A stretch of 41,299 nt of DNA. It comes from Elusimicrobiota bacterium. Its GTDB lineage: Bacteria > CG03. Positions 3,491-41,299 of this stretch are shown one piece after another (position 1 is the first letter of the stretch; each line of letters begins with the position of its first letter). Under the pieces are notes generated by a model. That model saw only the letters and a list, made by a program, of their open reading frames with translations, did not search any database and was not told the DNA's origin. The translations under genes were made by a program, and so were the position numbers. The stretch is taken from assembly GCA_034660675.1 (NCBI GenBank), contig JAYEJT010000125.1:1-41299 (forward strand), written 5' to 3'.

Positions 3491-3509
3491 TGCTTACCTC
3501 TTTATTTAT

Positions 3510-4601
3510 TTATTTTTTTCTGACGAATTTTCCTCCGGCAGAATTATCAATAAATCCATTTATTTGAAGATTTGTCAAGACTTTAAAAATTTCCGCCACC
3601 CCCATTCCGCTATCCTTCTTTATCCGGTCAAGACTCACGGGCTGCCACCTTATTATGTCGTACAGCTTCTTTTCCCCGTCGGAAAAAGGCTTTTTTACCA
3701 CAGCGGCGGGAATCTTCTGTTCCGTATTTTCAAACCCCGCGAATGAAAGTTCCCCCGTAATATCATCCGCGCTCTCCACAAGTTTCGCCCCGTCTTTTAT
3801 AAGCGCGTGACACCCCCTGTAATTATTGTCAAAAATGCTGCCCGGCGCGGCCCACACGTCACGGCCCTGTTCCGCGGCATAGGAAGCCGTGATCAGCGTA
3901 CCCGATCTTTTTGGGGCCTCAGCGACAAACACGGCACAGGACATGCCGCTGATAATTCTGTTTCTCCACGGGAAATGCATTTTAGCGGGCTGTGTGCCCA
4001 TAGGATATTCGCTAACCACAGCTCCGTTACGGGTTATTGATTCCACAAGCCGCGCGTTTTCGCGAGGATAGACCACATCAATCCCCGAACCTATAACCGC
4101 CACCGTTTTTCCGCCTTTCTTCAGCGCCGTTTCGTGCGCCCTCGTGTCTATGCCCCTGGCCAGACCGCTGACAACAGCAAAGCCCGTTTCGCAGAAAATG
4201 CCGCTGAAATATTCGCAAACCCTCTTTCCGTATGCTGAAGCTTTTCTCGTACCCACAACGGCTATCATCCTTTCGGAAGGCTCCGGAATTTTCCCCCTCA
4301 CCCTCAAAAATAAAGGCGGCGCGTTTATTTCTTTCAAAAGAGACGGATATTCCCCGTCATCAAGAAAAACAAGACGCGTGCCTGTTTTTTCCATAATCTT
4401 AAATTCTTTTGCCGGGTCAAACACCGTTTTTCCCAGAGAAAAAGCCCGTTTGCCTATCACGTTGGCAAGCTCTTCTTTGTCCGACGACAAAATGTCGAAA
4501 GGGTCGGACCTGAATCTGTAGAGTGCCGTCAGATCAGACTGCGTGATGGATTCGGAAAGCGACAATTCCAGCCATTTGTTTCTGTCTTTCTCTTTCATCA
4601 T
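3510..4601 (-). CDS. dprA: DNA-processing protein DprA
   Basis: IAVVGTRKAS, VVSGLARGIDT.AH, HFPWRNRIISG, SGTLITA and a C-terminal winged helix. Confidence 0.95.
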   Translation of the reverse strand: MMKEKDRNKWLELSLSESITQSDLTALYRFRSDPFDILSSDKEELANVIGKRAFSLGKTVFDPAKEFKIMEKTGTRLVFLDDGEYPSLLKEINAPPLFLRVRGKIPEPSERMIAVVGTRKASAYGKRVCEYFSGIFCETGFAVVSGLARGIDTRAHETALKKGGKTVAVIGSGIDVVYPRENARLVESITRNGAVVSEYPMGTQPAKMHFPWRNRIISGMSCAVFVAEAPKRSGTLITASYAAEQGRDVWAAPGSIFDNNYRGCHALIKDGAKLVESADDITGELSFAGFENTEQKIPAAVVKKPFSDGEKKLYDIIRWQPVSLDRIKKDSGMGVAEIFKVLTNLQINGFIDNSAGGKFVRKK

Positions 4602-23701: not shown

Positions 23702-25351
23702 TTATTCAAGGACAGCGCCGGTGGACGCGGAAGTGACAAGGCGGCTGTATCTGGAGAGCCAACCTGTTGTTTTTTTCTTTTTCAGTTTCACTTTTTTCAA
23801 ACGCTCTTTTATTTTCTTATCGCTCAACGCGACGCTGATCTTTCTGTTTTTTATATCTATGGTGATCTTATCCCCGTTTTGGAGAATCGCTATCGGCCCG
23901 CCCTCGGCGGCTTCGGGTGAAATGTGACCTATGCAGGGCCCGCGCGTACCGCCGGAAAATCTGCCGTCCGTTATAAGAGCCACAGAAGAACTGAGACCCA
24001 TGCCCGTTATGGCCGCGGTGGGAGAGAGCATCTCGCGCATACCAGGACCGCCTTTCGGCCCTTCATATCTTATGACGACAACATCGCCTTTCTTAAGTTT
24101 TTTCCCGAGAATAGCGGACATGGCGGATTCCTCTGATTCAAAAATCCTGGCGCGGCCGGTGAATTTCATCACGGATTTGTCAACAGCGCTCTGTTTGACA
24201 ACAGCTCCGTCGGGAGCAATGTTCCCTCTGAGAATGGCTATGCCGCCTTCCTTGTGATACGCCTTTTTGAGCGGCCTTATCACATCTTCATCAATAATAT
24301 CAGCCGCGCGGGCGAGGGCTTTTACCTTTTTTCCGGACACCGTGGTGTTGTCCTTCAAAAAAGGAAGAAGCCTTTTCAGAACGCAGGGTATGCCGCCGGC
24401 AAATTCAAGGTCCTCCATAAAATACTCACCGCCCGGCCTTATATTGGTTATGTGCGGCACTTTTCTGCTGAGCTTGTCAAAAAGCTCTATACCGGCATCC
24501 ACTTTTGCCTCGTGGGCTATGGCAGGAAGATGAAGAACGGTGTTCGTAGAACCGCCCAGGGCAAGATCAGTCACAACGGCATTGTTAAACGCATTTGCGT
24601 TCATTATATCACGCGCTTTTATGTTTTTACGGACAAGCTCAACAACGCGCTCGCCTGATTCATAAGCAATCCTTTTTTTCTTTGCCATTCCCGCAATGCC
24701 CGTAGCGCATCCCGGCAGACTCATACCCATGGCCTCTATGACACAGGCCGTCGTGTTGGCCGTGTACATCCCCTGGCACGAACCCTGCCCGGGGCAGGCT
24801 TCAATTTCAAGATTGTCCAGTTCACAGCGTTTGATCTTTCCGGCCTGATAAAGCCCCACAGCCTCAAAGGTGTCTCTGACAAGAGAACGCCTCTTCCCTT
24901 TATAATTTCCGCTCATCATGGGCCCCGCCGTCACAACGATGGAAGGAATATTCAAACGGGCCGCGGCCATTAGCATACCGGGATTTATTTTATCACAGTC
25001 CGTCAGAAGAACAAGACCGTCAAGCTGATGCGCAAGCGTCACGGTCTCCACGGTATCGGCGACAAGCTCCCTGAGCGGCAGAGAATAACGCATTCCCTCA
25101 TGACCCATGGCTATACCGTCACAGACAGCAGGCACACCGAAAACAAATGAAGCCCCGCCGCCGGCGTATATGCCCTTTTCTATATGCCTTTCCAGATCCC
25201 TCATGCCGACATGGCCGGGAACAAGATCCGAAAAACTTGACGCTATTCCTATGGCGGGTTTTTTCATTTCCGATTTTGAAATCCCCGTTCCATACAAAAG
25301 AGCTCTGTTGGGCGTTCTCTCAAAACCTTTTCTCGCTTTATCGCTTCTCAT
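23702..25351 (-). CDS. ilvD: Dihydroxy-acid dehydratase
   Basis: [31 protein letters not shown] and DGRFSG. Start moved to ATG 25351 (GGAGG upstream, ATGA overlap). Confidence 0.97.
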
Positions 25352-26952
25352 TTTTTCATCCTCCCTGCTTTTCCGCTTATTTCCCAATGCCCGCTTTTCG
25401 CCGAGCCCACGCGTTTTAATCTGCCCTGCGCTTTCAATTTTGCGATATGCCTCTCGACAGCGCGGGGAGTAACTTCTAATATTTTCGCTAAACCCGCCGC
25501 GCTTATTCGCCTATCATCACTTATAGCCCTCAAAATCTTCTCCGAACTCTTCTCCGAACCTTTCTCCGAACCTTCCTCCGAACCTTTCTCCGAACTTCTC
25601 CTTTCTTTAATGCCGGATTTAATATCTGTTTTCCAATGCCCGCTTTTCGCCGAGCCCACGCGTTTTAATCTGCCCTGCGCTTTCAATTTTGCGATATGCC
25701 TCTCGACAGCGCGGGGAGTAACTTCTAATATTTTCGCTAAACCCGCCGCGCTTATTCGCCTATCATCACTTATAGCCCTCAAAATCTTCTCCGAACTCTT
25801 CTCCGAACCTTTCTCCGAACTTCTCCTTTCTTTAATGCCTGATACCGGCCTTTGAAAAGTTATTGTAAAAAACAGATCGCTTTCTATTTTAAAAGCGGGA
25901 AGCCCTGCCTCTTTAACCGCTTTTCTCATACGATCTATCCCCGTGCCTATACGCTCCGCTTTATCCATACGGTCAAACATATCAGCAACAATTTCATTCC
26001 TTCTCACGGATATATTCATTAACACTTCAGGATTTAGCCCGTCGGGAAGATGCCCCGGATTACGTATCACAACCTTGTCTTCATGGACTTCAACCATTAT
26101 ACTTGTTCCCCGCATATTGTAATCCCGATGAATAATTGAGTTTACAACTGCCTCCCTCAAAGCTTCAATTGGAATTTCATAAATATCCCGTCTGTTTACT
26201 CCCTTTATTTCACTTCGCATATTCAAATGTTTTTGTAAAAAAATTATCGCCTCATTAAATTGTGTCAGCAAATCGTCTTTAACATCTTTACGGTCATATA
26301 TGTTAACCCTGCCTTCTCCTTTGAAAGCAACAAGAGTCATTTGGCAATGGGGTATTATATCTCTCGGCTTTTCCGCAAAGAGCAAAACCCCCGCATTTTT
26401 AATAGATCTTTTTGTTACAAGATTAAGACTTGATAAAACATCCTGCTTCACAATTTTTTTTACGGCTATTCCCGCTTCTTTAAAAAATGCTTTTATCTTT
26501 TCGGTTGAAATATCGCGCCAGGAAACATCATTATTACTTCGTTCTTCAAACGGAATATTTGCCGTGTTTTTATACACCATCCTGATTTCTTTCTGCGTCA
26601 TCTTTTGTGTTACCGCATCAAGTCTCCGGTAATAACCTGATGAACAGCTGTACGGTTTTTCGCACCCGCTTTCAACAGACACGATAACAATTTTTCCAAA
26701 ATGCTGTATTTTCTTAATTTGTATTGACGGCTCACATTTACGCGCAAGATCAATTATTTCCGCCTTCATTTTATTCGTTAACTTCTGCCCCATTATCTCG
26801 CCATTGTCCTTAACGCCTATAAATATATTACCGCCTTTTGTATTCGCAAAAGCAACAATATCCCTGACAATTTTTGAAGAATATTTCTCCTTAAACTCAA
26901 CCGAAAGACCTTCTCCTTCATTGATTATAAGATTTAGTTGACTCTCTTTCAC
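25348..26952 (-). CDS. Schlafen/AlbA_2 + HATPase_c_4 protein with a tandemly duplicated C-terminal winged HTH
   Basis: [50 protein letters not shown] and two identical HTH segments. Confidence 0.88.
25384..25839. repeat. Intragenic direct duplication (231 bp and 207 bp), each copy containing a 12-bp tandem array
   Basis: 25384-25614 matches 25633-25839 except for array length: 5 units (25538-25597) versus 3 units (25787-25822) of TTCTCCGAACYY. Confidence 0.92.
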
Positions 26953-27001: not shown

Positions 27002-27484
27002 TCACTCAAGAACAGCTTGGCGGCGCATCCTGTTTATAAGAGTATCATCTATTCCGGGAAGCCCGCTGATTTCACTGAGCTCCCATATCTCGCCCATTTT
27101 TTCTCTGTACTCAATAATACTTTTCGCAGCCCGGCGCGTTATGTCGGGAAGCCCCATCAGTTCATCTTCTCCGGCTGTATTCAGATTGATCTTGCCCGCG
27201 GGGGTCGCCTTCACAGACTCTTCATCCGCCGGATCAAAAGATATAACTTCTTCTCCGGCGCCGCCGGAATCGGATGAAGCGGCTTTTTGTATCAGTTCGT
27301 CAAGAGAAAAATTTTTCGTTATTTCTATTTTAGGAGGGGCCAGAACCGCTGTTATTTTACCGGACTCCCTGACGGGTATCCTTTTTATTTTCAAATGAAT
27401 GATCACGGAAAGAAAAGAAAACGCTATGCCCATGAGTATAAACGCGCCCTGGCGGGGACTTATCTGTGTGTCACCTATTCTCAT
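27002..27484 (-). CDS. ComEA-like helix-hairpin-helix protein with an N-terminal TM anchor
   Basis: TM segment, then KINLNTAGEDELMGLPDI...A.SIIEYREKMG...LPGI. Confidence 0.8.
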   Translation of the reverse strand: MRIGDTQISPRQGAFILMGIAFSFLSVIIHLKIKRIPVRESGKITAVLAPPKIEITKNFSLDELIQKAASSDSGGAGEEVISFDPADEESVKATPAGKINLNTAGEDELMGLPDITRRAAKSIIEYREKMGEIWELSEISGLPGIDDTLINRMRRQAVLE

Positions 27485-31363: not shown

Positions 31364-32221
31364 CTAAAATCTGAAGCCGGCGGTCGTTATATAGGCGTAG
31401 TCAAGAGCTCCGTGCGGGAGAAAAGCAAAATCAACAAAATAGCTCCCTTCCTGCCAGCCGAAACCGAAACTCAAATTAAAATCATCCTGATAAGATGAGC
31501 CCATCCTGAGAGTAAGATGTTTCTGTTTTTTGAATTCAAGCCCCAGAAGATACTGTATTTTTTCGTATCCTGTCATCTTCACTTCGCTGACAAGATAGAA
31601 TCTGCCCATCTTCTGAAGAGCCCCTACGGTCAGAGCCGTAGGCAGTTCCTCTTTTTCGTTGATCATTTTTTTCTTGCCGCCAAAATCTGACACCACCGCT
31701 CCAAAGGCGGCCGTCCGTGAGACCTGTGTCAAAAAACCTAAATCCCAAGCCGCGTGATTATAATCTTCACCGTAAATTTTTTGATTCAATTTTTTATATG
31801 TTGCTCCCGCGACGGTGTAACGTTTCAGCCGGAATCCGTATGACATGCTCAAAACACCGTATCTGTCTGTAAAATCACCGAGCTTTTCGCCGGCGGCATC
31901 CCTTGCCGTATCATCAAAATTATAATTCTGCCAGCTCAAACCGAAGTGCCCCGCGTTAAAAGAGGCGGCATTCTGTTTCGTGGACATATACCATGTGTTC
32001 TGCGAAAAAGACGCGCGGGTTTTCGGCTTCAAACCCAGCATCGCGGGATTGGACCTCCAGCAGTCCTGTCCTTCCCACACGACAGAACCGCCGTTCATCG
32101 CGGCAAACCTTGCCGACACCGGAATTTTAAGAAACGCGAAACTTCTCGTTCCGGGGTTTTCTGCAAAAGCAAAAACCGAGACAAGCAGAAGAACAGGCGC
32201 AAAAAATCTTATTTTTTTCAT
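31364..32221 (-). CDS. PorV/PorQ-like outer-membrane beta-barrel
   Basis: Signal peptide, FLKIPVSARFAAMNG...NPA plug motif, amphipathic strands and a C-terminal Phe (AGFRF). Confidence 0.8.
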   Translation of the reverse strand: MKKIRFFAPVLLLVSVFAFAENPGTRSFAFLKIPVSARFAAMNGGSVVWEGQDCWRSNPAMLGLKPKTRASFSQNTWYMSTKQNAASFNAGHFGLSWQNYNFDDTARDAAGEKLGDFTDRYGVLSMSYGFRLKRYTVAGATYKKLNQKIYGEDYNHAAWDLGFLTQVSRTAAFGAVVSDFGGKKKMINEKEELPTALTVGALQKMGRFYLVSEVKMTGYEKIQYLLGLEFKKQKHLTLRMGSSYQDDFNLSFGFGWQEGSYFVDFAFLPHGALDYAYITTAGFRF

Positions 32222-33081
32222 CTTATGATTGTCATCTTCCCTTTCGCGTTGCCCTTGAGGGCCTTATAAACAATAAAGTAATTCCCCGTAGAGACAATTC
32301 CGCCATGACTGTTCCTCCCGTCCCACTCGTTGGTACCTGTGAGTTTAACGACAAGCATTCCTCCCAGATCGTAAATTTCCACCACCGCGTTCAGCGAACC
32401 TTTGTTCTCGGGAGATATGATTTTACAGCTGTTTGAACCCGTGGGCATAAACGGGTTCGGCGCGCTATAGCAAACGCTCTCCGTTCTGAAACTGCCGTAT
32501 TTTGACGATTTCGGTGTGGGAAAAGAATTTACGTAAAAATCAACAGCGTTATTGTCAGAATCGGCTCCCGCCGGATCCCTTGTGAGAGATTCGCCGCCTC
32601 CCGCGTCAAGAGCGCTTGTGCCACCCTCGCCGTAAACATCGGACGCGGCCACATCGTCATAGGCCACCCTGTCCTTTTCCAGATCCGTGCCGTCTGTCAG
32701 ACATATCCCCTGCAGAGAACTGTTGCTCATCTGCAACTCATCGGAATAGATAAAATCCGGATAGCCGGCGTCCCAGCCGCAGATCGTGTGCACCTTAGAC
32801 TGAGTCATAAGAAAAAAAGATTTCGGCCCTATGGCAAAACTCTTCGTCGGCGAAGAGATAGTTATAAAATCTTCAAACCCCGTCACGCTGTCAGATTTTC
32901 TTATCTTCCAGCCCGTTATGGCAATGGTGGACGATGTGTTATTATAAAGTTCTATCCACTCATACCCTTCATCCGAACCGTCGGGGTCATAAACGAATTC
33001 GTTTATCACAACGCTGCCCGCAAACAATCTGCCGCAAAGGGCAAATATCAAAAGGCCGGTAAAAATTATCAGTTTTTTCAT
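32218..33081 (-). CDS. Exported lamin-tail-domain protein with a FlgD-Ig/T9SS-CTD-like tail
   Basis: Signal peptide, LTD motif VVINEFVYDP...EWIELYN, DSDNNAVDF, and a tail PNPF...IYDLGG.LV...WDGRN..G..V..G.Y. Confidence 0.82.
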   Translation of the reverse strand: MKKLIIFTGLLIFALCGRLFAGSVVINEFVYDPDGSDEGYEWIELYNNTSSTIAITGWKIRKSDSVTGFEDFITISSPTKSFAIGPKSFFLMTQSKVHTICGWDAGYPDFIYSDELQMSNSSLQGICLTDGTDLEKDRVAYDDVAASDVYGEGGTSALDAGGGESLTRDPAGADSDNNAVDFYVNSFPTPKSSKYGSFRTESVCYSAPNPFMPTGSNSCKIISPENKGSLNAVVEIYDLGGMLVVKLTGTNEWDGRNSHGGIVSTGNYFIVYKALKGNAKGKMTIIR

Positions 33082-34283
33082 AATCTCCAGTCCAGCGACA
33101 CATTAAACATGTGCATGGATTCCTGTATCCTCGAATCATAAGTTGTTGTAAAGCGCTGCCAGCTCTCCAGATAATTACGTCTGCCGTAAGCGTACCCTAA
33201 ATCCACATGCATGCTGGATGTGACATAATATCCGAAACCGGCCGTGAGATAGCCTCTCTCCACGGAAGACCTCTCGTAAGAAGGAACAAAGGCCATGCCG
33301 TAACGGATCTGCAGGGTGCTGCTCAAATCGTTTTCTATACCCAGATGATAAGACACCCTGTCTTTGTAATTTTGTTTTGCCAGCGTCACCGGATCCGTAA
33401 AACTCATGTCCGACCAAAAAGTTTTAACAATATCAAAATAGATTGACGCCGACACGGCACCGGCCCAGATGTGATTGAAACTGAGCGTGATCTTGCGGGG
33501 AATATCCAACTCTCCTTTATCCTTAATGCTGGTTGTGCCGCTTGTGCGTTTAAGATCATAATCAAGCCCCGCAGGAGCGGCATAAGCTATCCCGTAATTC
33601 CACAGGCCCCTGTCCCTGAAAAGAGACACGTTTGTGCGGCTGCCGGAAAAATCATATTCTCTTTTCACCCTGGAGGTGGTCGCCGGCGTTGTGCCGATGA
33701 TATTTGTCTCAATAGAAGGATTCCCCGCTATTATTTCGTGAGCTATTCCCCATGACCAGCTCCCGGAAAGTTTTAAAGCCAACGCCAAATTATAATTTGT
33801 TATATTGCCCGAACCTTTGTAATCAAATTTTCCCGCATAGCTGCCGCCCGAATAAAAATCGTTCTCATGTTCATAGGAAAAATTCATCAGCCTGCCCATT
33901 CCCAGGCCCAGCCTCACCTTTTCGCTGAAAGCGTAGACAAAAGCCGTTTCAGGAATCCCGAAATAAGAGTTACCGTTATAATAAGCGGCGCCTTCGTCCG
34001 CCGACCAGTCGTTATCGGGAATGATCCTTTCCGACACAAAAACAAGAGGAACGGAAAAATAAAACCTGCTCCCCTCAAAAGCCGACATCGCCGCGGCGTT
34101 GCTGAAAACGCAGGAAGCGTTCTTTGCCGACGAAGCCGATGTCAGTCCCAGAGAAAGAGATTTTGCCCCTCCCGAATAAACGGGGTCTCCCATATTAAGA
34201 ACTCCCAGGTCCGTAAAAGCCCATAACGGAACCGCCAATGTCAGCGCCAGCGCCGGAATTAAAATTTTTATTGTTTTTTTCAT
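33078..34283 (-). CDS. FadL/OmpP1-like outer-membrane beta-barrel
   Basis: Signal peptide, GAKSLSLG...NAA plug motif, aromatic-rich strands and C-terminus SLDWRL. Confidence 0.72.
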   Translation of the reverse strand: MKKTIKILIPALALTLAVPLWAFTDLGVLNMGDPVYSGGAKSLSLGLTSASSAKNASCVFSNAAAMSAFEGSRFYFSVPLVFVSERIIPDNDWSADEGAAYYNGNSYFGIPETAFVYAFSEKVRLGLGMGRLMNFSYEHENDFYSGGSYAGKFDYKGSGNITNYNLALALKLSGSWSWGIAHEIIAGNPSIETNIIGTTPATTSRVKREYDFSGSRTNVSLFRDRGLWNYGIAYAAPAGLDYDLKRTSGTTSIKDKGELDIPRKITLSFNHIWAGAVSASIYFDIVKTFWSDMSFTDPVTLAKQNYKDRVSYHLGIENDLSSTLQIRYGMAFVPSYERSSVERGYLTAGFGYYVTSSMHVDLGYAYGRRNYLESWQRFTTTYDSRIQESMHMFNVSLDWRL

Positions 34284-35740
34284 AATTCACCTCTTTTCAA
34301 TTCTTCTAAAACCCGAGTGCCTTTTTTCGTTATAACATACTTTTGCTTCGGACTATTCGGTCTTTCCTGAATTGTCATTTTAATTAAGCCATTTTCTATA
34401 ATTGGTTTCAATATATTTGCCCTGAAATGCCCTCTGTGTTTGAAACCCGTATATTGTTGAATTTCATCTCTGTGTTTCGGTTTTTTGCAGAAAACAATAA
34501 TTTTAACCTGGACGGTACTTGGACGGTACTTGGACGCTACTTGGACAGTACTTGACCGGCGCTTGCCGGATGACACCTGTGTTTTTTTTCGCCGGCTCTT
34601 TCTTTGAAAAATTACAACAAAATTCCCCGCTATTTCTTTATATTCAGGGGAAAAAAGCCCGTAATCCCTCATCATTTTATTCATCTTATCTATGCCTGTG
34701 CCCCAGCGTTCTATGTATCCCGCTAAAAACAGCAACTCTGCAACAGCGGGGTTTCTCAACACTGATAAATGCCCTTTAGACAATTCTTTGATTTCTATGC
34801 CAAACGGTAGCGCCCCTGGCGACCAAATCTCAATTCTATTGTCAAAAATTGCTATATCAATATGACTGGGAATCCTATAATCCCTGTGCGCGACAGCATT
34901 TGCCACAGCTTCCCTGATGGCAAGATAAGGAAGCTCATATCGCTCTTCCCTGCGTCCGGTTTGCGGATTTATCCACGCAGCCTTGCGAATATTTCTAAGG
35001 ATAAAGTTTTCGGCATAATCTATCTGCCTGAAAGCATTAGCGTTTATTTCTATATGGTCAAGAATCCGGCCTGTCTTATCCGCGCCTTCAAACACCGCGC
35101 ATTTAAGAATAATATCAGGGAAGTGTTTCTGAATTTTTTTACCAAAAGCCAACAAGCCGGCAAAATTCAATTTATCCTGCGTCATTAATCCGAGTTTGTT
35201 TAAAATTGTATTTTTATCTTCGCTAAGATCAATGGGCAAATTCCTTGTTTCCTTCGCGTTTTTGAGAAACCATTTTAAGGTTTTCGCGGACACACCGTCC
35301 CGATAATCTTCTGCTATCATTCTGTCAAATCTGTAAGCTGGATTTGCCCGCTCATACAAAAATTTTTCAAGCTCATATCTTGACAGATACGCATCACTCG
35401 TACCGATTCTCTTATACGCTTTCCCTTTATAAAAATACGGCTTTTCCGGACTGTTTTTAATTTCAACAAGCAAAACATCTTTGTTGTTTATTTTTTTCAC
35501 ATAGATATTCGGATACAATCTCGGTTCTATTAAAGACAGCACGCTTGCCGAGATTCTTTTTATTGTATTATCGCTGACTTCCTGACCGGTTATTTTACCT
35601 TTATCGTCTATACCGAAATAAACTGTCCCTTCGCCGTTGTTAGCAAAGGCGCAAAGAGTTTTTAACGCCTGCTTCAATTCAGCGGTGGATTTTTTAAATT
35701 CCACCCTTTCTGATTCGTTTGTTTTCATACTTTTTTTCAT
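34280..35740 (-). CDS. Schlafen/AlbA_2 + HATPase_c_4 protein with a C-terminal Fic-associated-type HTH
   Basis: ESERVEFK, CAFANNGEG.VYFGIDD, AIREAVANAVAHRDY, ERWGTGI and a PNSPKQKYVITKKG tail. Confidence 0.88.
   Translation of the reverse strand: MKKSMKTNESERVEFKKSTAELKQALKTLCAFANNGEGTVYFGIDDKGKITGQEVSDNTIKRISASVLSLIEPRLYPNIYVKKINNKDVLLVEIKNSPEKPYFYKGKAYKRIGTSDAYLSRYELEKFLYERANPAYRFDRMIAEDYRDGVSAKTLKWFLKNAKETRNLPIDLSEDKNTILNKLGLMTQDKLNFAGLLAFGKKIQKHFPDIILKCAVFEGADKTGRILDHIEINANAFRQIDYAENFILRNIRKAAWINPQTGRREERYELPYLAIREAVANAVAHRDYRIPSHIDIAIFDNRIEIWSPGALPFGIEIKELSKGHLSVLRNPAVAELLFLAGYIERWGTGIDKMNKMMRDYGLFSPEYKEIAGNFVVIFQRKSRRKKTQVSSGKRRSSTVQVASKYRPSTVQVKIIVFCKKPKHRDEIQQYTGFKHRGHFRANILKPIIENGLIKMTIQERPNSPKQKYVITKKGTRVLEELKRGEL
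34510..34564. repeat. 11-bp tandem repeat inside coding sequence
   Basis: GGACGGTACTT GGACGGTACTT GGACGCTACTT GGACAGTACTT, plus a degenerate GACCGGCGCTT. Confidence 0.88.
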
Positions 35741-35744
35741 ATCA

Positions 35745-37826
35745 TCAAAATTTAAAAATATATTTTATCTCAAACTTCTCGGAAACATCGTTCATAACAT
35801 CCTCACTGTCATATTCATATGTGCCGTCACCGTAATCATAAGTGCCGTATTCCGGCATATAAAATTCCGGCGGATAATGGTACATTTTTCTCTCGTATTT
35901 CAAAGACACGCTTGAGCGTTTGGAAAATTTCATCTTCGGCTTCACTGATATAAGCGTGTATTTCTTCTTCCCGTCGCCGGGGTCCTTGTCATAAACAATC
36001 TTGGAAAGCACCTGAAAACTTTTTGTAAACCTGTATTTCAGCTCCGCTTTTGACGAGCTGTAAAACCATATCCACTGATTATCCTCTATCACTTTTTTCA
36101 TGTCGTACTGCCACTTTATTCTCACATCGCCGGTCGGGCTCCATTTCAGCTGCAGCCTGAGCTTGTCCATTTGTTTTGGTATCTGAAAATAATCGCTCGT
36201 GTCATACATTTTTATTTTATCATCCTCGTTCTGGATGGTGTAACGGCACATCACTTTGAATTTTTTCGTCACCGGATACTGTCCCTGAAGATAGGTCTTG
36301 TAAAAATTTTTCAGCGTTATTTCCTTGAGGGGACTGAGCTCCCGCCACATCTCCCCTGCCCATTTCAATTTCAGTTTTTTCGTCTTCGTTTTCAATTCAG
36401 AAAACAGCTTTTCCCTGGGATTATCGCCTGACACATGGTAATTGTAATAATCGGAATCAAACCGGTGAAAACCCGCAAGCAGCGTCGTATAAGAAAAGCT
36501 GTAAACACTCGCGAACTGAAAAGCCTTGCCCTCTTCTCTGGTTTTTGACTGGTCTATGTTGCTTTCGTATGCGTCATGGATCGAAAGAGCGTAATCAAGA
36601 AAAAATTTGCCGTTGCCCTGAGACGTTTTAACGCCGGCGGAAAAAATGTCGTTTCGGCCCCCTGAAAACTTGTAGCGTATGTATTTGATATCGGTTTCGT
36701 CCCAGTCCTCTATGTCCTCCTCATCCATCCAGTCATCTTCTCTTTCCACCGGCATAACCTCAGGGCCGAATTTTTCATGATAACCCAAAAAATGCACTTC
36801 ATAATTCGGCAGCGGCAGGGACACATAAAAACCGCAGGTTTTGTCTTCCATGTTGTTGATGAGATTGAATTTGTCCTGGTTGTTATAGGCGAAACTCACG
36901 CTTGAGGGCACGGATTTAGCGGTACCGTCCGGATTGAGTTTGGCTGTGAGCCATTTGTCCGAATAAAAAGCGGCCCAGGTCAGATAAGGCATTGTTCTTT
37001 GAACAGCAATCCCGTAGAAACCGGCATTTTTGTTTGAGGACCTGTAGGGTTCCACCCCTTTCTTTTCGCGGCTCACGGCTGATATCGTCTTTGCCAGCGA
37101 ACCCAGTCCGAGACCGCGTTCAAACCTGAGCTTAAAGGCCCCGAGAACAACGGTATCAAAACCCATATACCCCTTCGCGTAAAGATAATTGCTCACGAGA
37201 TAGTATCTCCGCAGATTCTCCCAGTTATAAGCCTGTCCCCAGTGATTCCTTTTCATCGCGAAAGATATCTCCATGTTGGTGCCGTAAAAAAATCTCAACC
37301 GGGAAAACTGGTACTCCGGATTATGAAAATTTTCGGGCGAATCAATCTGCTTATCGGAAAAAGGCATGGCCAGCTTCTGTTTGATTCTGAGATCGCCTCT
37401 CATCACCTCTTTTTCTTCTGCTGTATAAACTGTCAAAAACGGCCTTATTACTCTGTATATGGCGTCAGTAACCCCCGGAACGTCTTTGAGTTCTTCCACA
37501 TCCCTGAATCCTCCGCGCCTGACCCGGTAACGTACTATCTCAACCACCACCCTTGGCGGCAGCATGGGAAGTTTCATGAGATCCGGCCTGTTTGCGCTGT
37601 TAAGATCAAGAGGATTCATCCTGAAATCCTCAAGTTCCCCGGTGTCAACTTCCTCATACCCCATTTGTTCGTCTTCAACATCCTCAACTATTTCGTCATA
37701 TATATTCTCAAGATCCTTATCGGAAATGTCCGCGGAAACAGAACCGGATAAAAAGATAATAAAAAAACTAAACGCTGTTAAAGCAAGAATGCAGGAACGG
37801 CGCCCGACAGTGTGACAGTAATTCAT
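35745..37826 (-). CDS. Large exported protein: N-terminal ComEA-type HhH domain plus a predicted outer-membrane beta-barrel
   Basis: Signal peptide, PLDLNSANRPDLMKLP...IVRYRVRRGGFRDVEELKDVPGV, then about 550 aa of alternating aromatic/Lys strands ending IKYIFKF. Confidence 0.78.
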   Translation of the reverse strand: MNYCHTVGRRSCILALTAFSFFIIFLSGSVSADISDKDLENIYDEIVEDVEDEQMGYEEVDTGELEDFRMNPLDLNSANRPDLMKLPMLPPRVVVEIVRYRVRRGGFRDVEELKDVPGVTDAIYRVIRPFLTVYTAEEKEVMRGDLRIKQKLAMPFSDKQIDSPENFHNPEYQFSRLRFFYGTNMEISFAMKRNHWGQAYNWENLRRYYLVSNYLYAKGYMGFDTVVLGAFKLRFERGLGLGSLAKTISAVSREKKGVEPYRSSNKNAGFYGIAVQRTMPYLTWAAFYSDKWLTAKLNPDGTAKSVPSSVSFAYNNQDKFNLINNMEDKTCGFYVSLPLPNYEVHFLGYHEKFGPEVMPVEREDDWMDEEDIEDWDETDIKYIRYKFSGGRNDIFSAGVKTSQGNGKFFLDYALSIHDAYESNIDQSKTREEGKAFQFASVYSFSYTTLLAGFHRFDSDYYNYHVSGDNPREKLFSELKTKTKKLKLKWAGEMWRELSPLKEITLKNFYKTYLQGQYPVTKKFKVMCRYTIQNEDDKIKMYDTSDYFQIPKQMDKLRLQLKWSPTGDVRIKWQYDMKKVIEDNQWIWFYSSSKAELKYRFTKSFQVLSKIVYDKDPGDGKKKYTLISVKPKMKFSKRSSVSLKYERKMYHYPPEFYMPEYGTYDYGDGTYEYDSEDVMNDVSEKFEIKYIFKF

Positions 37827-37905
37827 TAATTCAACTTTTTCCCCGCCCGAAATTCAACCGTTCCGGCAGGCGGATTCTCTCATCCCGCATCTTGTGTCTG
37901 ATATG

Positions 37906-39321
37906 TCACCGCCTGAGTTTCTGCTTGCATCTCTCAATAATACGCAAAGACTGAGGATGGGCGGGATCTATTTTGAGTATTTTCTCAAATTCCGTTATCG
38001 CCTGCGAATATTTTTTAGCCTGATAAAGTTTCAACCCTTTAAAATACAATTTTTTCTTCAGTTTTTCTTTTTCATCCGGAGAAAGTGTCTTTTCTGCAGC
38101 GGCTTTCTCCTCCTGAACAGGCTGAACATATTCAAGGCCTTCCGGTTTTTCCGAAGGCGCTTCAACCTTGATGTAGTCTTTCATCTTGTTAAACTGTCTC
38201 TTGGTAAAACGGGGCACCTTCAGCAGATCCTCTTTCGCGGTAAAAGGCCCGTTGTTATTCCTGTAATCAACAATTCTCACAGCCGTCACTTTTCCTATTC
38301 CGGGAAGCGCGTCAAAATCAGCGATTTCAGCAATATTGATATCGGTGAGCTCAACGGGTTTTTCGCCTTTTACCGCCGGCACTGTTCTGCGTCTCCGTTT
38401 CTTTGCTTTTTTATAGTAATCCGTCGGGGCAGCGGACTCTCTCTTCTCTCCCCACCTGAGGGACGCCGAAAAAAGATGCTGGTTATCAAGCACCTCGTGG
38501 GTCCGGAAAGCGTAATCAAAATCTATGCGGTTGAACATGAGGCCGAAACCGAAAGAAGCGCTCTGCGGTTCCGGCTGCACTCCGAACCTCACGCAAAATT
38601 CAGGTATAACATTTATCTCCGCACCGAGTTTTATGATGTCTTCTTCCCTGTCAACCGGCATGTTCCAGTCAATAACCGTTATCATGCCCCTGAAAGGACG
38701 GTAACAAACGCTTCCCGTCAGATCCCTGTACAGATTTTCCGACGCGATCTGGGGCCTGTTGAGCCCTCTTGAAAAAATCCCCAGGGAAAGTTTCGTTGAC
38801 ACCACACCTAGCGCCCCCGCATCAAAAGAAACGGCAGAAGCGCTGCCGCCTCCCTCTATTTTAAGAGAGAGATTCCGGATATTGTATCCGAAATAAGCGC
38901 CGGGAACAAGCATGAGACTGTGCGTAAATACCAGTTCACTCTCCTTATAGAAAGCCGCCCCGAATGATGTGTAATTAAAGGCAAATGAACCGGCGGATCT
39001 GGTGGGAATCATAAAACCGGCGTTATCATGCTTCAAATCGGACTCACCGTAAAGAGAGGTCTGCGAAAAAGACAGAGCCGCGGCGCTTAAAAGATTGAGT
39101 CCGGCGGGATTAAAAAACGGAGCGCTGTAATCATTGGCCAGTGCCGTGTAAGCCCCGCTCATGGCCGCCGGACGCGCCGCAAGCGGCTTGTCCTCAAATG
39201 CGGCGTATGCATTGCGCGGCATTAAAAATGAAAAACTAAAGAGGCTAAATAACACAGCAGCAGCAACGCTATGTGACGCACTTCTTGCGCAAATATTAAG
39301 GACATCCCTATACTTTTTCAT
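37906..39321 (-). CDS. PorV-like beta-barrel fused to a ComEA-type HhH domain and a C-terminal TPR
   Basis: Signal peptide, ARPAAMSGAYTALAND...NPAGL, barrel ending FSASLRWG, DINIA...LPGIGKVTAVRIVDYRNNNGPF...LLKVP, and TPR YFKGLKLYQ...LKIDP. Confidence 0.82.
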   Translation of the reverse strand: MKKYRDVLNICARSASHSVAAAVLFSLFSFSFLMPRNAYAAFEDKPLAARPAAMSGAYTALANDYSAPFFNPAGLNLLSAAALSFSQTSLYGESDLKHDNAGFMIPTRSAGSFAFNYTSFGAAFYKESELVFTHSLMLVPGAYFGYNIRNLSLKIEGGGSASAVSFDAGALGVVSTKLSLGIFSRGLNRPQIASENLYRDLTGSVCYRPFRGMITVIDWNMPVDREEDIIKLGAEINVIPEFCVRFGVQPEPQSASFGFGLMFNRIDFDYAFRTHEVLDNQHLFSASLRWGEKRESAAPTDYYKKAKKRRRRTVPAVKGEKPVELTDINIAEIADFDALPGIGKVTAVRIVDYRNNNGPFTAKEDLLKVPRFTKRQFNKMKDYIKVEAPSEKPEGLEYVQPVQEEKAAAEKTLSPDEKEKLKKKLYFKGLKLYQAKKYSQAITEFEKILKIDPAHPQSLRIIERCKQKLRR

Positions 39322-40280
39322 AGTTTTCGCCCTATCGCCACCACCGTCTGTTCTTTTACCACGCCGCCGGTGTCCTGATCGGCAAGCTCCACCGAAATTA
39401 TATACATGCCGCAGGGAAGGAACTGCTGATTAACATCCCTGCCGTCCCATATGTAATCATAATGCTGTGACTGGAACTCCTCTCCTTTCACAATCGCCCT
39501 GACAAGACGGCCTTTGACATCATAAACAAGCACATTAACCCTCTGCTCCGTGACCGGCGTGGCCGGAAGATTGAAAACAATTCTGCACGAGGAAGGTTTT
39601 CCCGCCGGAGTGGAGTAGGGGAAAAACACTTTCAGCGGCACATCCGAAGACGGGCCGAAAGTTTTCAGGCCTATAGCTTTTAAATAAGTGGGGAGGGGAT
39701 CGTACGAAAACCGGACTGTGTCCACATAAACATCATTATTGTTATTCACGCTTTCTTTCACCGTCAGATAAATCACAGCACTCACAGCGTTGGCCGGAGC
39801 AGCCATGGAATCTGACGTTATCTGCTGCCAGCTGTCAAAAGAACTTAGTGTTTCTCCGGCAATCAGCCCCGTATCCTTCCCCAGGTCATTCCCGCCGGAA
39901 TCAAACCATTTGACATAAAGCTGCATATCCGTGTCATCTATGTCGCCGGCTTCTTCAGACACATAAAACCAGGCGCTCAAGGTGAAAGCGTAATCATCCG
40001 AGGGGCTGGCACTCCCGGTGGCCGTGACAAGATTTATCAGATCGCCGGTCAATATCCTTCCGCTGAAAGCGCTGGTGGGATCCTTGAACTTACAGGAAAA
40101 AGCCCCGTCATTGCTCCTGTCGCTTGAAGCACTGATGCTTGTGGAATTAGCGCTCCAGCCGTTGAGGGTGCCGTCATTGAAATTCTGCTTGGTCAGAGCT
40201 ATATCAACCGCATACGCTGAAGTCACAAGCACCGCCATCGCCACTGGCACAGCCACAAATTTAATTTTTTTATTGTTCAT
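39318..40280 (-). CDS. Exported protein: CBM-like beta-sandwich plus a FlgD-Ig/T9SS-CTD-like tail
   Basis: Signal peptide, NFNDGTLNGW...WQQI...APANAVSA...VYVDTV jelly-roll pattern, and tail VYDVKGRLVR...WDGRD....LPCGMYI. Confidence 0.72.
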   Translation of the reverse strand: MNNKKIKFVAVPVAMAVLVTSAYAVDIALTKQNFNDGTLNGWSANSTSISASSDRSNDGAFSCKFKDPTSAFSGRILTGDLINLVTATGSASPSDDYAFTLSAWFYVSEEAGDIDDTDMQLYVKWFDSGGNDLGKDTGLIAGETLSSFDSWQQITSDSMAAPANAVSAVIYLTVKESVNNNNDVYVDTVRFSYDPLPTYLKAIGLKTFGPSSDVPLKVFFPYSTPAGKPSSCRIVFNLPATPVTEQRVNVLVYDVKGRLVRAIVKGEEFQSQHYDYIWDGRDVNQQFLPCGMYIISVELADQDTGGVVKEQTVVAIGRKL

Positions 40281-41053
40281 TTTTCAATCCTTGGCGGCAG
40301 CTTTATGCCTTTCATATCAAAAAAACCGGCCACAATAGCGCCTGCGAAATAAATAACCCACAAATACGTGCCGTAACCCGTAAGCAGCGCCGCAATCCCG
40401 GCCGCCAGCATTGAGCAGGCGAATATTATCAGCGACACCTCCAGAAAATACCATTTTTTCGTCATCATGTTGTAAATTGAATCCGCCGGATAATTGTGCC
40501 TTTTGTGCCTGACTATTCCCGCCGCAAAAAAACAGAAACCCACCGGGGATATGCCCTGAACAAGCAGATGTATGAGCACAAGTTCAATTCTCGGTGAAAC
40601 GTTAACAAACCACTTCGCGTCATAAAGAGTAATAAACGAATTCTGAGCGATTATTTTAGAACCGTCCACCGCCGCTATGTTGATGAGGATAAACATCAAG
40701 CCCATAAAAGCGGCCACTATAAAAATGGCGGCCTGCACGGTCTTCGGCACCTTTTTTTCTTCCGATGTCCAGTTGAAAATTGCCACAAGCAGCGACGGCG
40801 CGAACACGGCTATCATGAGAAACTGCCTCACGCAATTAACGATGAGCGGCGCGGGATACGGCCCTATAATGTTCTGAAGGGGCCTGCTCATAAGCCACAA
40901 CCCCAGCGCGACATAGGCGTAGAAAGTGCCTTTTATGGTGAGTTCCCCGAGAATGAGCGTTCTCCCGCGATTGCTTTTTTTTATCTCATAAGCCATGGCG
41001 AAATAAACGAGCCCCGCTATCACAGGGAGCGCTATGTTCAAAACTATCAGCAT
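40277..41053 (-). CDS. Polytopic membrane protein of unknown function (about 7 TM)
   Basis: About seven hydrophobic segments. ATGA overlap with the next gene. Confidence 0.75.
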   Translation of the reverse strand: MLIVLNIALPVIAGLVYFAMAYEIKKSNRGRTLILGELTIKGTFYAYVALGLWLMSRPLQNIIGPYPAPLIVNCVRQFLMIAVFAPSLLVAIFNWTSEEKKVPKTVQAAIFIVAAFMGLMFILINIAAVDGSKIIAQNSFITLYDAKWFVNVSPRIELVLIHLLVQGISPVGFCFFAAGIVRHKRHNYPADSIYNMMTKKWYFLEVSLIIFACSMLAAGIAALLTGYGTYLWVIYFAGAIVAGFFDMKGIKLPPRIEK

Positions 41054-41091
41054 ATTATTTTTTCTTTGTCCTCTTTATCACTTAATTATTT

Positions 41092-41299
41092 TCAATACTC
41101 ATCATCCACGCCGGACTCTGAATCGTATCTGTCCGTTAGGGTCTTCTCTACAACACTCTTGAGCTTTTTGTCTTTTATCTCCACCTGATTTATCCAGGAA
41201 CCGCCGCCGGAGGGCGCGCGCGCCGGCCATGAAACCCAGCCGCCCCATTTTCCTTCCATAATTTTACACTCTATTTCAAGCTTGTTGTTAAAAGTCATA
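41092..41299 (-). CDS. C-terminal part of a SpoVG-like nucleic-acid-binding protein (5' end outside the window)
   Basis: TFNNKLEIECKIMEGKWGGWVSWPAR...WINQVEI...KSVVEKTL aligns by eye with the SpoVG pattern TFD..F.I..IKVIEG..GLFIAMPSR. Confidence 0.55.
   Translation of the reverse strand, partial: MTFNNKLEIECKIMEGKWGGWVSWPARAPSGGGSWINQVEIKDKKLKSVVEKTLTDRYDSESGVDDEY

Follow-up and report, generated by a model that had tools for sequence, protein, structure and literature searches.

Might a gene cluster that encodes outer-membrane barrels, secreted cargo proteins and HhH domains allow a bacterium to handle DNA at its surface without a pilus, in a manner not yet studied? The nine open reading frames concerned (31364-41298, all on the minus strand, as are the cluster coordinates given below) lie in a window of 41,299 nucleotides, which is the whole stretch of DNA that was analysed, from an Elusimicrobiota metagenome bin of 171 contigs. 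The original prediction saw in them a machine that binds or imports extracellular DNA. We find that the locus is a real outer-membrane module, conserved, widespread and unstudied, and that it is best read as serving the capture or uptake of DNA, although this reading is unproven and we place it a little short of an even chance: the outer-membrane cluster, its HhH domains and the nuclease-type and comEC context in relatives all speak for such a machine, but the missing ComEA lysine, the occurrence of CTD/PorV pairs throughout the genome and the unlinked comEC of the window's own family (f1) speak against it.

Cargo-and-barrel gene pairs

The gene order and five ATGA overlaps (at 40277, 39318, 34280, 33078 and 32218) can be read in the sequence just as originally described, and the remaining intergenic gaps in the cluster are 38, 79, 4 and 86 nt. 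Pfam and NCBIfam profile searches of the cluster ORFs, together with a CTD profile that we built ourselves, identified two pairs in which a cargo gene is followed by a barrel gene. The first cargo gene, g2 (39318-40280), has ATGA overlaps at both ends and encodes a predicted secreted protein with a signal-peptide-like N-terminus, a CBM_4_9/NTTRR-F1-like head and a C-terminal FlgD_ig/T9SS-type sorting domain (CTD-profile match at residues 223-315); of the two domains expected here, the CBM was recovered (CBM_4_9, 28.9 bits), but FlgD_ig scored slightly under its cut-off (26.6 versus 27 bits). The adjoining g3 (37906-39321) combines a PorV-like barrel with HhH and TPR segments (PorV_fam, 56.7 bits; HHH_3, 58.2 bits; one TPR match), the HHH_3 domain lying at 38170-38343 (PF12836, 62.1 bits in the genome scan). 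In the AF2 model of g3 (pLDDT 79.8), a 14-strand barrel (residues ~42-291) is followed by a basic linker, the HhH domain (~325-385), an acidic linker and three TPR-like helices (415-470), and the best Foldseek matches are PorV chains of T9SS translocon structures (6h3i_F, E 2.6e-9; and 8gl6_F).

The second cargo gene, g7 (32218-33081), encodes a predicted secreted lamin-tail protein with a C-terminal T9SS-type sorting domain (CTD-profile match at residues 199-287). Its LTD was correctly called (53.7 bits), but the tail, formerly read as FlgD-Ig, is instead a weak match to CHU_C and Por_Secre_tail (E ~1e-3). An ATGA overlap joins g7 to g8 (31364-32221), a predicted small barrel of the PorV/PorQ family (NF033709, 72.5 bits; PorQ, 61 bits; both below cut-offs) with a signal-peptide-like N-terminus and a C-terminal phenylalanine, which is likely the anchor for g7. 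That g3 and g8 each come after a gene with a T9SS-type CTD fits the binding of CTD cargo by PorV, as given in PMC8754138 and in the title of entry 8gl6. Gene order and the 14-strand barrel of g3 thus resemble PorV/PorQ of the type IX secretion system (NF033709; 6h3i, 8gl6); however, both g3 and g8 score below the family cut-off of 90 bits, and the HhH-plus-TPR tail of g3 is one that we have seen in no described PorV.

Between the two pairs stands g6 (33078-34283), a predicted outer-membrane barrel of the FadL/Toluene_X family (PF03349, 55.7 bits; cut-off 29.7) with a signal-peptide-like N-terminus. Of the four barrels originally claimed, g3 and g4 take that form in AF2 models, the structure prediction having been one of the proposed checks, and g6 and g8 are assigned by family match and by their N-termini, with the C-terminal aromatic residue of g8 as a further sign. 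A FadL/PorV-type 14-strand barrel beside a larger one recalls SprA-PorV and BamA-BamG, as do weak BamG matches of g6 and its homologues; but the g4 barrel has no SprA-like or BamA-like family match, and g6 reaches only 43.9 bits in the NCBIfam search against a BamG cut-off of 250.

Cargo-and-barrel pairs occur beyond this cluster: a CTD-profile gene lies directly upstream of 11/19 PorV-like ORFs genome-wide, and such pairs are therefore not special to a DNA machine. A possible explanation, to which we give a minority but appreciable probability, is that the locus is a general T9SS-like module for surface display or envelope work with no DNA-specific role, in which the CTD proteins would be common surface enzymes or binders that PorV-like barrels anchor, the PorV-like and large barrels would act like SprA-PorV or BamA-BamG in secretion or in building the outer membrane, and the HhH domains would have a structural part in the periplasm, like those of GspK or PsbU. 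The genome-wide pairs, the weak BamG matches and a sub-threshold SprA-like ORF of 1715 codons elsewhere in the genome favor this explanation, although the BamG and PorV cut-offs are far from reached. The genome has no PorU above cut-off and no GldM match.

HhH domains and the large barrel of g4

In natural transformation, DNA is received by ComEA, which is either periplasmic or anchored in a membrane, and we compared the HhH domains with its profiles (Pfam HHH_3, TIGR01259/TIGR00426) and structures (8dss, 8dfk, 2duy). The largest barrel gene, g4 (35745-37826), encodes a signal peptide, an acidic stretch, an HhH domain (residues ~70-134) and a large barrel (142-692) that ends in phenylalanine (AF2 model, pLDDT 81.2, pTM 0.77). 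Its HHH_3 match (48 bits; domain at 37431-37610, PF12836, 52.7 bits) precedes some 550 residues without any family match. As predicted, then, two barrel proteins carry ComEA-type HhH domains, both scoring well above the Pfam cut-off of 27, and in phmmer searches ComEA structures were matched by both of them and by a small HHH_3 protein with a membrane anchor, encoded at 27002-27484 in the same window. The likeness consists of the two-hairpin HhH fold, the fit of the g4 domain to Geobacillus stearothermophilus ComEA and an expected periplasmic location, which for both g3 and g4 would follow from the usual topology of outer-membrane barrels. In VIA-align, the g4 domain superposes on 8dss_B with Z 11.8 and an rmsd of 1.3 A over 65 residues at 32% identity, and so close a fit to the DNA-binding domain of ComEA runs counter to a general envelope module.

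Other features of these domains are at odds with a canonical ComEA. The NCBIfam ComEA cut-offs were missed (40 and 26 bits versus 152; 35.9 and 18.7 bits versus 53.1), and the column of the lysine described as essential in two ComEA studies (K63 in V. cholerae, K164 in B. subtilis) holds threonine in g3 and valine in g4 in alignments to 8dss and 8dfk. Only the first hairpin of g3 is canonical, both hairpins of g4 are non-canonical, and neither protein has an oligomerisation or SLBB domain; moreover, ComEA is a free protein or has an inner-membrane anchor, whereas the HhH domains of g3 and g4 are fused to outer-membrane barrels. Both domains also match the T2SSK and PsbU models, which, like the absent lysine, is what structural HhH domains in a general module would lead one to expect.

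The claim that no pilus or secretin gene is present holds for the locus itself, but elsewhere the genome has one secretin gene and no fewer than seven ORFs for T2SSE-type ATPases. Together with ComEC and with DprA, whose gene was correctly placed in the window (3510-4601) along with that of the third HhH carrier, these genes would allow a classical secretin/type IV pilus route, to which g3 and g4 might contribute an outer-membrane-tethered ComEA, the barrels being anchors and none of them conducting DNA. A secretin occurs in 26/26 genomes of the phylum, and since the HhH domain of the small HHH_3 protein is acidic (net charge -3), other HhH carriers might hold the DNA. We nevertheless consider such a tethered receptor improbable, in that the cluster is unlinked to secretin or pilus genes in every locus read, a barrel of this size would be a costly anchor, and the essential lysine is missing under this explanation too.

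The barrel part of g4 matches no Pfam model in any of 68/68 members of its family, and its best whole-barrel structural matches by VIA-align are the usher pores FimD (Z 16.9) and PapC (Z 16.6), over ~365 residues. Ushers are 24-stranded pores that pass folded pilus subunits; however, identity to them is only 8-10%, the locus contains no usher Pfam domain, chaperone gene or pilin gene, and a common barrel size does not imply a common function. By a crude alternation rule, the strand positions assigned to the lumen include 44 K+R against 22 D+E, such that the putative lumen of the modelled barrel would carry a net positive charge.

Conservation and comEC linkage within the phylum

Lack of synteny in relatives had been named as a finding that would count against the original prediction. 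In 14 relatives' loci, chosen by a g3 match, the core order of CTD cargo, PorV-HhH (g3), HhH-barrel (g4), FadL-like gene, CTD cargo and PorV-like gene is kept: a g4-family gene lies 3' of g3 in 14/14 loci, a CTD-bearing gene lies 5' of g3 in 12/14, and, among the 12 in which the contig extends further, 11 have a FadL-like gene (the g6 orthologue) after g4. The AlbA_2 gene g5 (34280-35740; AlbA_2/HATPase_c_4/Fic-like_C), once counted as a member of the system, is absent between g4 and g6 in all 14 and is a recent insertion specific to this genome, outside the conserved system; G+C in the profile is at its lowest (0.406) in the 2-kb interval 34001-36000, where most of the gene lies.

At the 5' end of the cluster, g1 (40277-41053) encodes a 258-aa multi-pass membrane protein, for which seven helices had been proposed and a hydropathy scan gives about six hydrophobic stretches. 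It belongs to no Pfam or NCBIfam family, its Atlas matches are unnamed clusters only, and its orthologues (69-90% identity) are confined to four loci of f1. Upstream, at 41092-41298, the contig end leaves only the final 68 codons of a further gene. This piece had been called SpoVG-like, and although by itself it matches no Pfam or NCBIfam family, tblastn found it 91% identical over 58 aa to a same-genus locus (L013), where the 387-aa counterpart has a signal-peptide-like start and matches Pfam SpoVG at 83.5 bits. The counterpart in relatives is an exported protein of ~370-414 aa with two or three SpoVG domains.

Clusters from other families (genomes G016, G024, G011 and G025) contain these multi-SpoVG proteins (signal-peptide-like N-termini in 7/7 read) as well as giant LTD/fn3 proteins. 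Other-family clusters also include a CTD-bearing PLDc_2 protein, weakly NucT-like, and an MBL protein with a signal peptide, which matches the C-terminal portion of ComEC (TIGR00361 positions 441-663, E ~1e-40). In 4/4 genomes outside f1 with contig sequence beyond the cluster (G016, G011, G024 and G020), comEC itself (967-992 codons) begins 165-267 nt past the final PorV-like gene and on the same strand; next come genes for a PD-(D/E)XK nuclease and a further ComEC-type MBL protein, and in G011 also an SLBB-protein gene and another comEC. Within f1, the cluster has no nuclease-type gene, CBM-type cargo and the g1-type membrane protein being found in their place, and comEC is unlinked, on another contig or locus. 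In the co-occurrence check that had been proposed, mere presence of comEC is uninformative: the gene occurs in 19/20 genomes of the phylum that encode a full-length g4 and in 5/6 of those that lack one.

In relatives, the cluster is accompanied by enzymes of nuclease and protease type, the latter being C10 and S8 protease cargo that is consistent with general scavenging and adds to the case for a general module. These enzymes argue against a further explanation, in which the locus imports some other polyanion or surface polymer (e.g., a polysaccharide, a teichoic-acid-like polymer or polyphosphate) bound by the CBM and LTD heads, with the nearness of comEC incidental. The CBM_4_9-like domain of g2 and the net positive charge of the putative g4 lumen are compatible with such a substrate, as is the role of the LTD domain, which is unsettled in the literature according to PMC6085458. 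Nevertheless, the clusters read contain no glycoside hydrolase or sugar-handling gene, and we regard polymer import as very improbable.

A candidate DNA route, and the barrel pair in other phyla

The genes, the folds, the synteny and, in relatives, the link to comEC and nuclease-type genes are observed; to these, DNA capture or uptake would add surface anchoring, a topology and every DNA step. The CTD cargo proteins, with the CBM-like head of g2 and the lamin-tail head of g7, would be held on the surface by the neighbouring PorV-like barrels g3 and g8, and would catch extracellular nucleic acid there. The usher-sized g4 barrel would have its N-terminal, ComEA-shaped HhH domain in the periplasm beside the HhH-plus-TPR tail of g3, with the FadL-like g6 as a third kind of part. 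Nucleic acid, or pieces of it, might then pass through the outer membrane, probably via g4, and the two barrel-tethered HhH domains could retain it on the periplasmic side for ComEC; the DNA so imported might serve as food or for transformation.

In the wider Bacteroidota group, pilus-independent, barrel-based DNA handling at the outer membrane is described, in PMC8459023 and PMC12478041, for the transformation genes of Riemerella anatipestifer and for the DNA-utilisation locus ddbABCDEF of Bacteroidales, and these likewise bring together ComEC, nucleases, an HhH protein of the periplasm and a partner that binds DNA at the surface. As described there, however, their barrel is of the TonB-dependent transporter type and is partnered by a DUF5689 protein, whereas g4 has no Plug, TonB-receptor or CarboxypepD_reg domain, the present locus encodes no DUF5689, and its HhH domains are fused to barrels.

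Outside the phylum, the PorV-like and large-barrel pair is present in 68 of ~375 sampled genomes, mostly without DNA-related neighbours, as would be expected of a general module. Among 20 loci with strong g4 homologues, the neighbours are mostly unrelated housekeeping genes, no comEC lies within the fetched flanks of 19, porD adjoins the pair in 3/20, and a PorV-HhH fusion adjoins the g4 homologue in 3/20. What a general module leaves unexplained is the company of SpoVG repeats, PLD/NucT-like, MBL and LTD proteins and comEC that surrounds the pair across the phylum, and again in G317, a genome of another phylum, in which SpoVG-like, PorV-like, HhH-barrel and BamG/FadL-like genes are followed ~2.4 kb on by comEC.

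Gene order and conservation of the cluster

The window is contig C125 in its entirety and belongs to a 1.5-Mb bin of 171 contigs that is 96% complete; its cluster consists of nine minus-strand open reading frames running from 41298 down to 31364. All five ATGA overlaps named in the original prediction were recovered, the remaining junctions having gaps of 38, 79, 4 and 86 nt, and Pfam and NCBIfam bore out nearly all of its domain assignments. A SpoVG-like piece (41092-41298) and a membrane protein, g1 (40277-41053), for which a look-up in Atlas returned unnamed clusters only, are followed by g2 (39318-40280; CBM_4_9/NTTRR-F1-like with a FlgD_ig tail), g3 (37906-39321; PorV_fam, HHH_3 and TPR), g4 (35745-37826; HHH_3 plus about 550 residues without a family), g5 (34280-35740; AlbA_2/HATPase_c_4/Fic-like_C), g6 (33078-34283; Toluene_X, i.e., FadL), g7 (32218-33081; LTD and a weak T9SS-type tail) and g8 (31364-32221; PorV/PorQ family). 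Signal-peptide-like N-termini are present on g2, g3, g4, g6, g7 and g8, and both g4 and g8 end in phenylalanine, a terminal residue that is common in outer-membrane barrels.

The proposed operon keeps its core order across the 14 relatives' loci examined, which were chosen by their match to g3 and come from the same genus, family and class, from other families of the phylum and from one other phylum. A g4-family gene comes after g3 in all 14, a gene bearing a T9SS-type C-terminal sorting domain (CTD) precedes g3 in 12, and of the 12 loci where the contig runs further, 11 have a FadL-like gene after g4. One or two more pairs of CTD cargo and PorV-like genes come further along the clusters, and an upstream position of SpoVG and g1 is confined to the window's own family. 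Full-length g4 homologues occur in 20 of the 26 species genomes sampled from the phylum. Among 401 sampled genomes, a g4 match at E <= 1e-25 is present in 88, of which 68 belong to other phyla; there the barrel family is found in about one-fifth of the sampled genomes. Complete genomes from other phyla, G089, G103 and G303 for example, carry the pair of PorV-like gene and HhH-barrel. The locus is a real, conserved and unstudied outer-membrane module: what was originally observed is confirmed, and its interpretation as an outer-membrane operon for DNA capture or uptake is partly supported.

Outside the phylum, the comparison covered the 20 loci that match g4 best. A PorV_fam gene occurs within three open reading frames on either side in 11, lying directly upstream in nine, and three of these nine are PorV-HhH fusions; porD sits beside the pair in three of the 20, and most of the remaining neighbours are unrelated. 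In one such genome (locus L042), the pair is placed between an open reading frame with weak matches to antiphage-NTPase models (L042:129-1661) and a PLD/NucT-like (DrmC-like) protein (L042:5336-6502).

The exception to this conserved order is g5, a gene recently inserted between g4 and g6; none of the 14 relatives' loci has it, and G+C along the contig is at its lowest (0.406) in the 2-kb profile window containing most of g5. A second AlbA_2/HATPase_c_4 gene (25348-26952), 28% identical to g5, also occurs in the window, and each of the two directly follows a gene encoding an HHH_3 domain: g5 splits the barrel cluster; the second gene lies between a small comEA-like gene and ilvD. This comEA-like gene, the third in the window as had been noted, encodes a small membrane-anchored protein (27002-27484) whose position after leuA is kept in a genome of the same family; its hairpins are non-canonical and its HhH domain is acidic (net charge -3), which is odd for a DNA receptor. 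The dprA gene is likewise present, together with a XerC/D-type tyrosine recombinase and topoisomerase I (550-1452 and 1439-4601), and this group, at the contig's opposite end, is separated from the cluster by about 27 kb and lies outside its operon.

Paired barrels with ComEA-type domains

Both g3 and g4 fold as barrels in AlphaFold models, as had been expected of them. In the g3 model (pLDDT 79.8), a disordered, basic linker joins a 14-strand barrel to the HhH domain, after which an acidic linker leads to three TPR-like helices. The best Foldseek matches of g3 are PorV chains of T9SS translocon structures, 6h3i_F (TM on the target 0.62) and 8gl6_F, followed by FadL. Like solved PorV, g3 is modelled as a 14-strand barrel of the FadL type; g3 (56.7 bits), g8 (72.5) and g6 (27.9) all miss the 90-bit cut-off of the PorV/PorQ model NF033709. 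For g6, the match to PF03349 covers profile positions 31-381 of 421 and passes the FadL/Toluene_X family cut-off (55.7 vs. 29.7 bits), whereas its score against BamG of the Bacteroidota BAM complex (43.9 bits) is far below the NF053685 cut-off of 250.

The g4 model (68-row alignment; pLDDT 81.2, pTM 0.77) has N-terminal helices and then a barrel at residues 142-692, for which Foldseek returned generic large barrels only (TM 0.33-0.42) and VIA-align ranked the usher pores FimD and PapC at the top (Z 16.9 and 16.6, about 365 residues). This likeness to chaperone-usher systems is limited to the barrel: g4 has no usher match in Pfam, and Pfam detected no chaperone or pilin genes in the locus. The barrel portion is without a Pfam model. 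Except for three isolated and weak porin-type matches, HhH models are the only ones matched by any of the 68 family members. The Plug, TonB-receptor and CarboxypepD_reg domains of TonB-dependent transporters are absent, by Pfam, from g4 and from all 68 members. PorF of P. gingivalis was considered as a counterpart of g4 and rejected, since its paper describes it as a TonB-dependent-receptor plug-domain protein.

In an even-stranded outer-membrane barrel both ends are usually periplasmic, and by this rule the HhH domains of g3 and g4 would lie in the periplasm. Both exceed the Pfam cut-off for HHH_3 (58.2 and 48 bits, respectively, vs. 27), and residues 70-134 of g4 match ComEA of G. stearothermophilus (8dss_B) with Z 11.8 and an rmsd of 1.3 A over 65 residues in VIA-align. 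Neither domain reaches the NCBIfam cut-offs for ComEA: g3 and g4 score 40 and 26 bits against TIGR01259 (cut-off 152.35), and 35.9 and 18.7 bits against TIGR00426 (cut-off 53.1). The first hairpin of g3 is canonical and its second is not, and both hairpins of g4 are non-canonical. Two studies found a conserved DNA-contact lysine after the first hairpin to be essential in ComEA (K63 in V. cholerae, K164 in B. subtilis; PMC3879209, PMC9747964). In alignments to 8dss and 8dfk, where this lysine was assigned by its place after the hairpin, its column is occupied by threonine in g3 and by valine in g4; a basic residue stands one or two positions before it. The tail of g3 is strongly basic, and the stretch of g4 that precedes its HhH domain is strongly acidic.

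Two ComEA-shaped domains beneath the outer membrane, and an usher-sized barrel whose putative lumen positions (under a crude assignment rule) contain basic and acidic residues in a ratio of two to one, favour a role in DNA handling; the replaced lysine, the single canonical hairpin and the missed ComEA cut-offs disfavour it. One conceivable explanation is that the pair supplies an outer-membrane-tethered ComEA to the classical route. The locus lacks a pilus or secretin gene, as originally noted, but the genome encodes a secretin and pilus-type ATPases (a secretin occurs in 26 of 26 genomes of the phylum), which counts against a DNA role for the cluster; the replaced lysine bears on this explanation as well, and we regard it as quite improbable.

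Probably exported nucleic-acid-type proteins and the link to comEC

SpoVG is a cytoplasmic nucleic-acid-binding regulator, and its domain recurs upstream of the pair in proteins that are probably exported, judging from their signal-peptide-like N-termini (seven of seven read). The 68-codon piece in the window is the tail of a gene cut at the contig end and alone matches no family; a 387-aa counterpart from the same genus matches SpoVG and starts with a signal-peptide-like segment. Full-length proteins of the relatives score 74.7-102.7 bits against PF04026 (cut-off 29.6). With one to three domains each, these proteins (window 41092-41298; L013:13154-14317; L015:13289-14533; L020:15515-16678; L022:3148-4293; L025:3580-4692; L036:6414-7088; L051:7655-8242) occur within this phylum and, outside it, in two genomes.

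In four genomes from other families of the phylum (G016, G024, G011 and G025), the cluster is longer than in the window. In operon order it encodes a giant LTD/fn3 protein, a PorV-like barrel and an exported protein with two or three SpoVG domains; a CTD-bearing PLDc_2 protein whose NucT-like match is weak, and again a PorV-like barrel; a signal-peptide-bearing MBL protein matching the C-terminal part of ComEC (E ~1e-40); an LTD-CTD protein, a PorV with two HhH domains, a barrel with two HhH domains and a FadL-like barrel; and C10 and S8 proteases that carry CTDs, with a PorV-like barrel after each of them. Stand-alone MBL proteins (L020:11987-12958, L022:7030-7920, L025:7170-8123, L018:366-2702 and L031:5324-6331) match only the C-terminal part of ComEC, and signal peptides are present on some of them; one carries fused Big_5 and fn3 domains and a T9SS tail, from which we conclude that it is probably surface-displayed.

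Beyond the window's family, the cluster leads directly into comEC. In all four such genomes with a continuing contig (G016, G011, G024 and G020), a comEC gene of 967-992 codons begins 165-267 nt past the cluster on the same strand, and is followed by a two-domain PD-(D/E)XK nuclease and then by a further ComEC-type MBL protein; G011 additionally has an SLBB protein and a second comEC downstream. The nuclease, a protein of 616-618 aa with two Cas4/AddB-like domains (L031:3511-5361, L032:3449-5299, L030:2218-4074), always comes after the long comEC. Within the window's family, the comEC block is elsewhere (on another contig in G007, and on the short contig C45 in the window's genome), and the gene at the nuclease position gives only a weak UvrD-helicase match. 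Among the 20 loci of other phyla, one (in G317) has comEC within its flanks, and this locus also repeats the order SpoVG-like, PorV-like, barrel, BamG/FadL-like. Co-occurrence with comEC across the phylum, proposed at the outset as a check, proved uninformative: comEC is nearly universal there, being present in 19 of the 20 genomes with the barrel and in five of the six without it.

The gathering of exported nucleic-acid-type proteins around the pair and the direct junction with comEC across the phylum, and the LTD heads, predicted to sit at the surface, argue for a DNA role; the unsettled published role of LTD domains (PMC6085458) counts against it. Taking both sides together, we consider it somewhat short of an even chance that the cluster captures or imports nucleic acid. 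A stronger version, which we consider unlikely, makes the HhH-barrel family an outer-membrane channel for nucleic acid that depends neither on TonB nor on a pilus and secretin, with g4 itself as that channel. Under this version, surface proteins on PorV-like anchors would catch DNA, exported nucleases would trim it, the usher-sized barrel would pass it through the outer membrane, and barrel-tethered ComEA-type domains would ratchet it towards ComEC.

One route by which DNA crosses the outer membrane, that of pilus and secretin, is known. A second, recently described in Bacteroidota, uses a TonB-dependent transporter of the DdbC / RA0C_RS04915 type (PMC8459023, PMC12478041). The Riemerella route and the Bacteroidales ddb locus described in these papers combine nucleases and ComEC with a barrel of the TonB-dependent type, a surface partner with DUF5689 and an HhH protein that is separate and periplasmic. 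By analogy, this pilus-independent route is the nearest experimentally supported counterpart of the locus. The logic is shared and the parts differ: in Pfam searches none of the defining domains, as set out in those papers, was found here, the locus having no DUF5689 match, and on that description we rejected its identity with the ddbABCDEF system.

If the channel reading were true, it would constitute a third and widespread DNA route over the Gram-negative outer membrane, given that about one in five of the genomes sampled from other phyla carry the barrel family. With its ComEA-type domain built in, its conservation across a phylum ahead of comEC and its presence in many other phyla, such a barrel would make a further route directly testable, and the route would bear on how genes flow and how environmental DNA is turned over in lineages that are uncultured. 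Should the DNA reading fail, the widespread pair of a PorV-like barrel and an HhH-barrel, the exported SpoVG-repeat proteins and the stand-alone exported ComEC-type MBL domains would still be undescribed in the literature searched, in which exported SpoVG proteins, HhH-barrels and PorV-HhH fusions were all without an account (supplementary gene tables, including those for ddb and Riemerella, lying outside its scope).

A possible T9SS-like display system

The same parts could serve a T9SS-like or envelope function that is independent of DNA. Putative cargo genes with CTD-type tails lie directly upstream of g3 and g8, and across the genome 11 of the 19 PorV-like open reading frames (C10:11632-12582, C30:12463-13956 and C100:10630-12087 being examples of the 19) have, directly upstream, a gene matching a CTD profile built in this analysis, with gaps of -27 to +35 nt. 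The search for core T9SS components covered SprA, PorU and GldM. One 1715-codon open reading frame (C114:251-3364), which may encode a distant T9SS translocon, matches the SprA model in four collinear pieces, none of which reaches the curated cut-off. The SprA_N model of Pfam found nothing in this genome, a blank that is uninformative because control genomes gave none either. For PorU no match exceeded the cut-off, seven of eight lying at the CTD end of the model and one 41.6-bit piece at positions 487-735; GldM_1st had no match in this 96%-complete genome.

The CTD and PorV-like pairs, together with the sub-threshold SprA-like frame, point to a T9SS-like display system in this genome, of which the locus is one island. 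That such pairs occur genome-wide, and that relatives' clusters include proteases, disfavours a DNA role; the nucleic-acid-type neighbours and the junction with comEC favour one. We consider a DNA-independent function of this kind a tentative alternative, rather doubtful on present evidence, and leave to other substrates whatever probability remains. Several of the genome's PorV-like frames are long, at 420-554 aa, and may carry extra domains.
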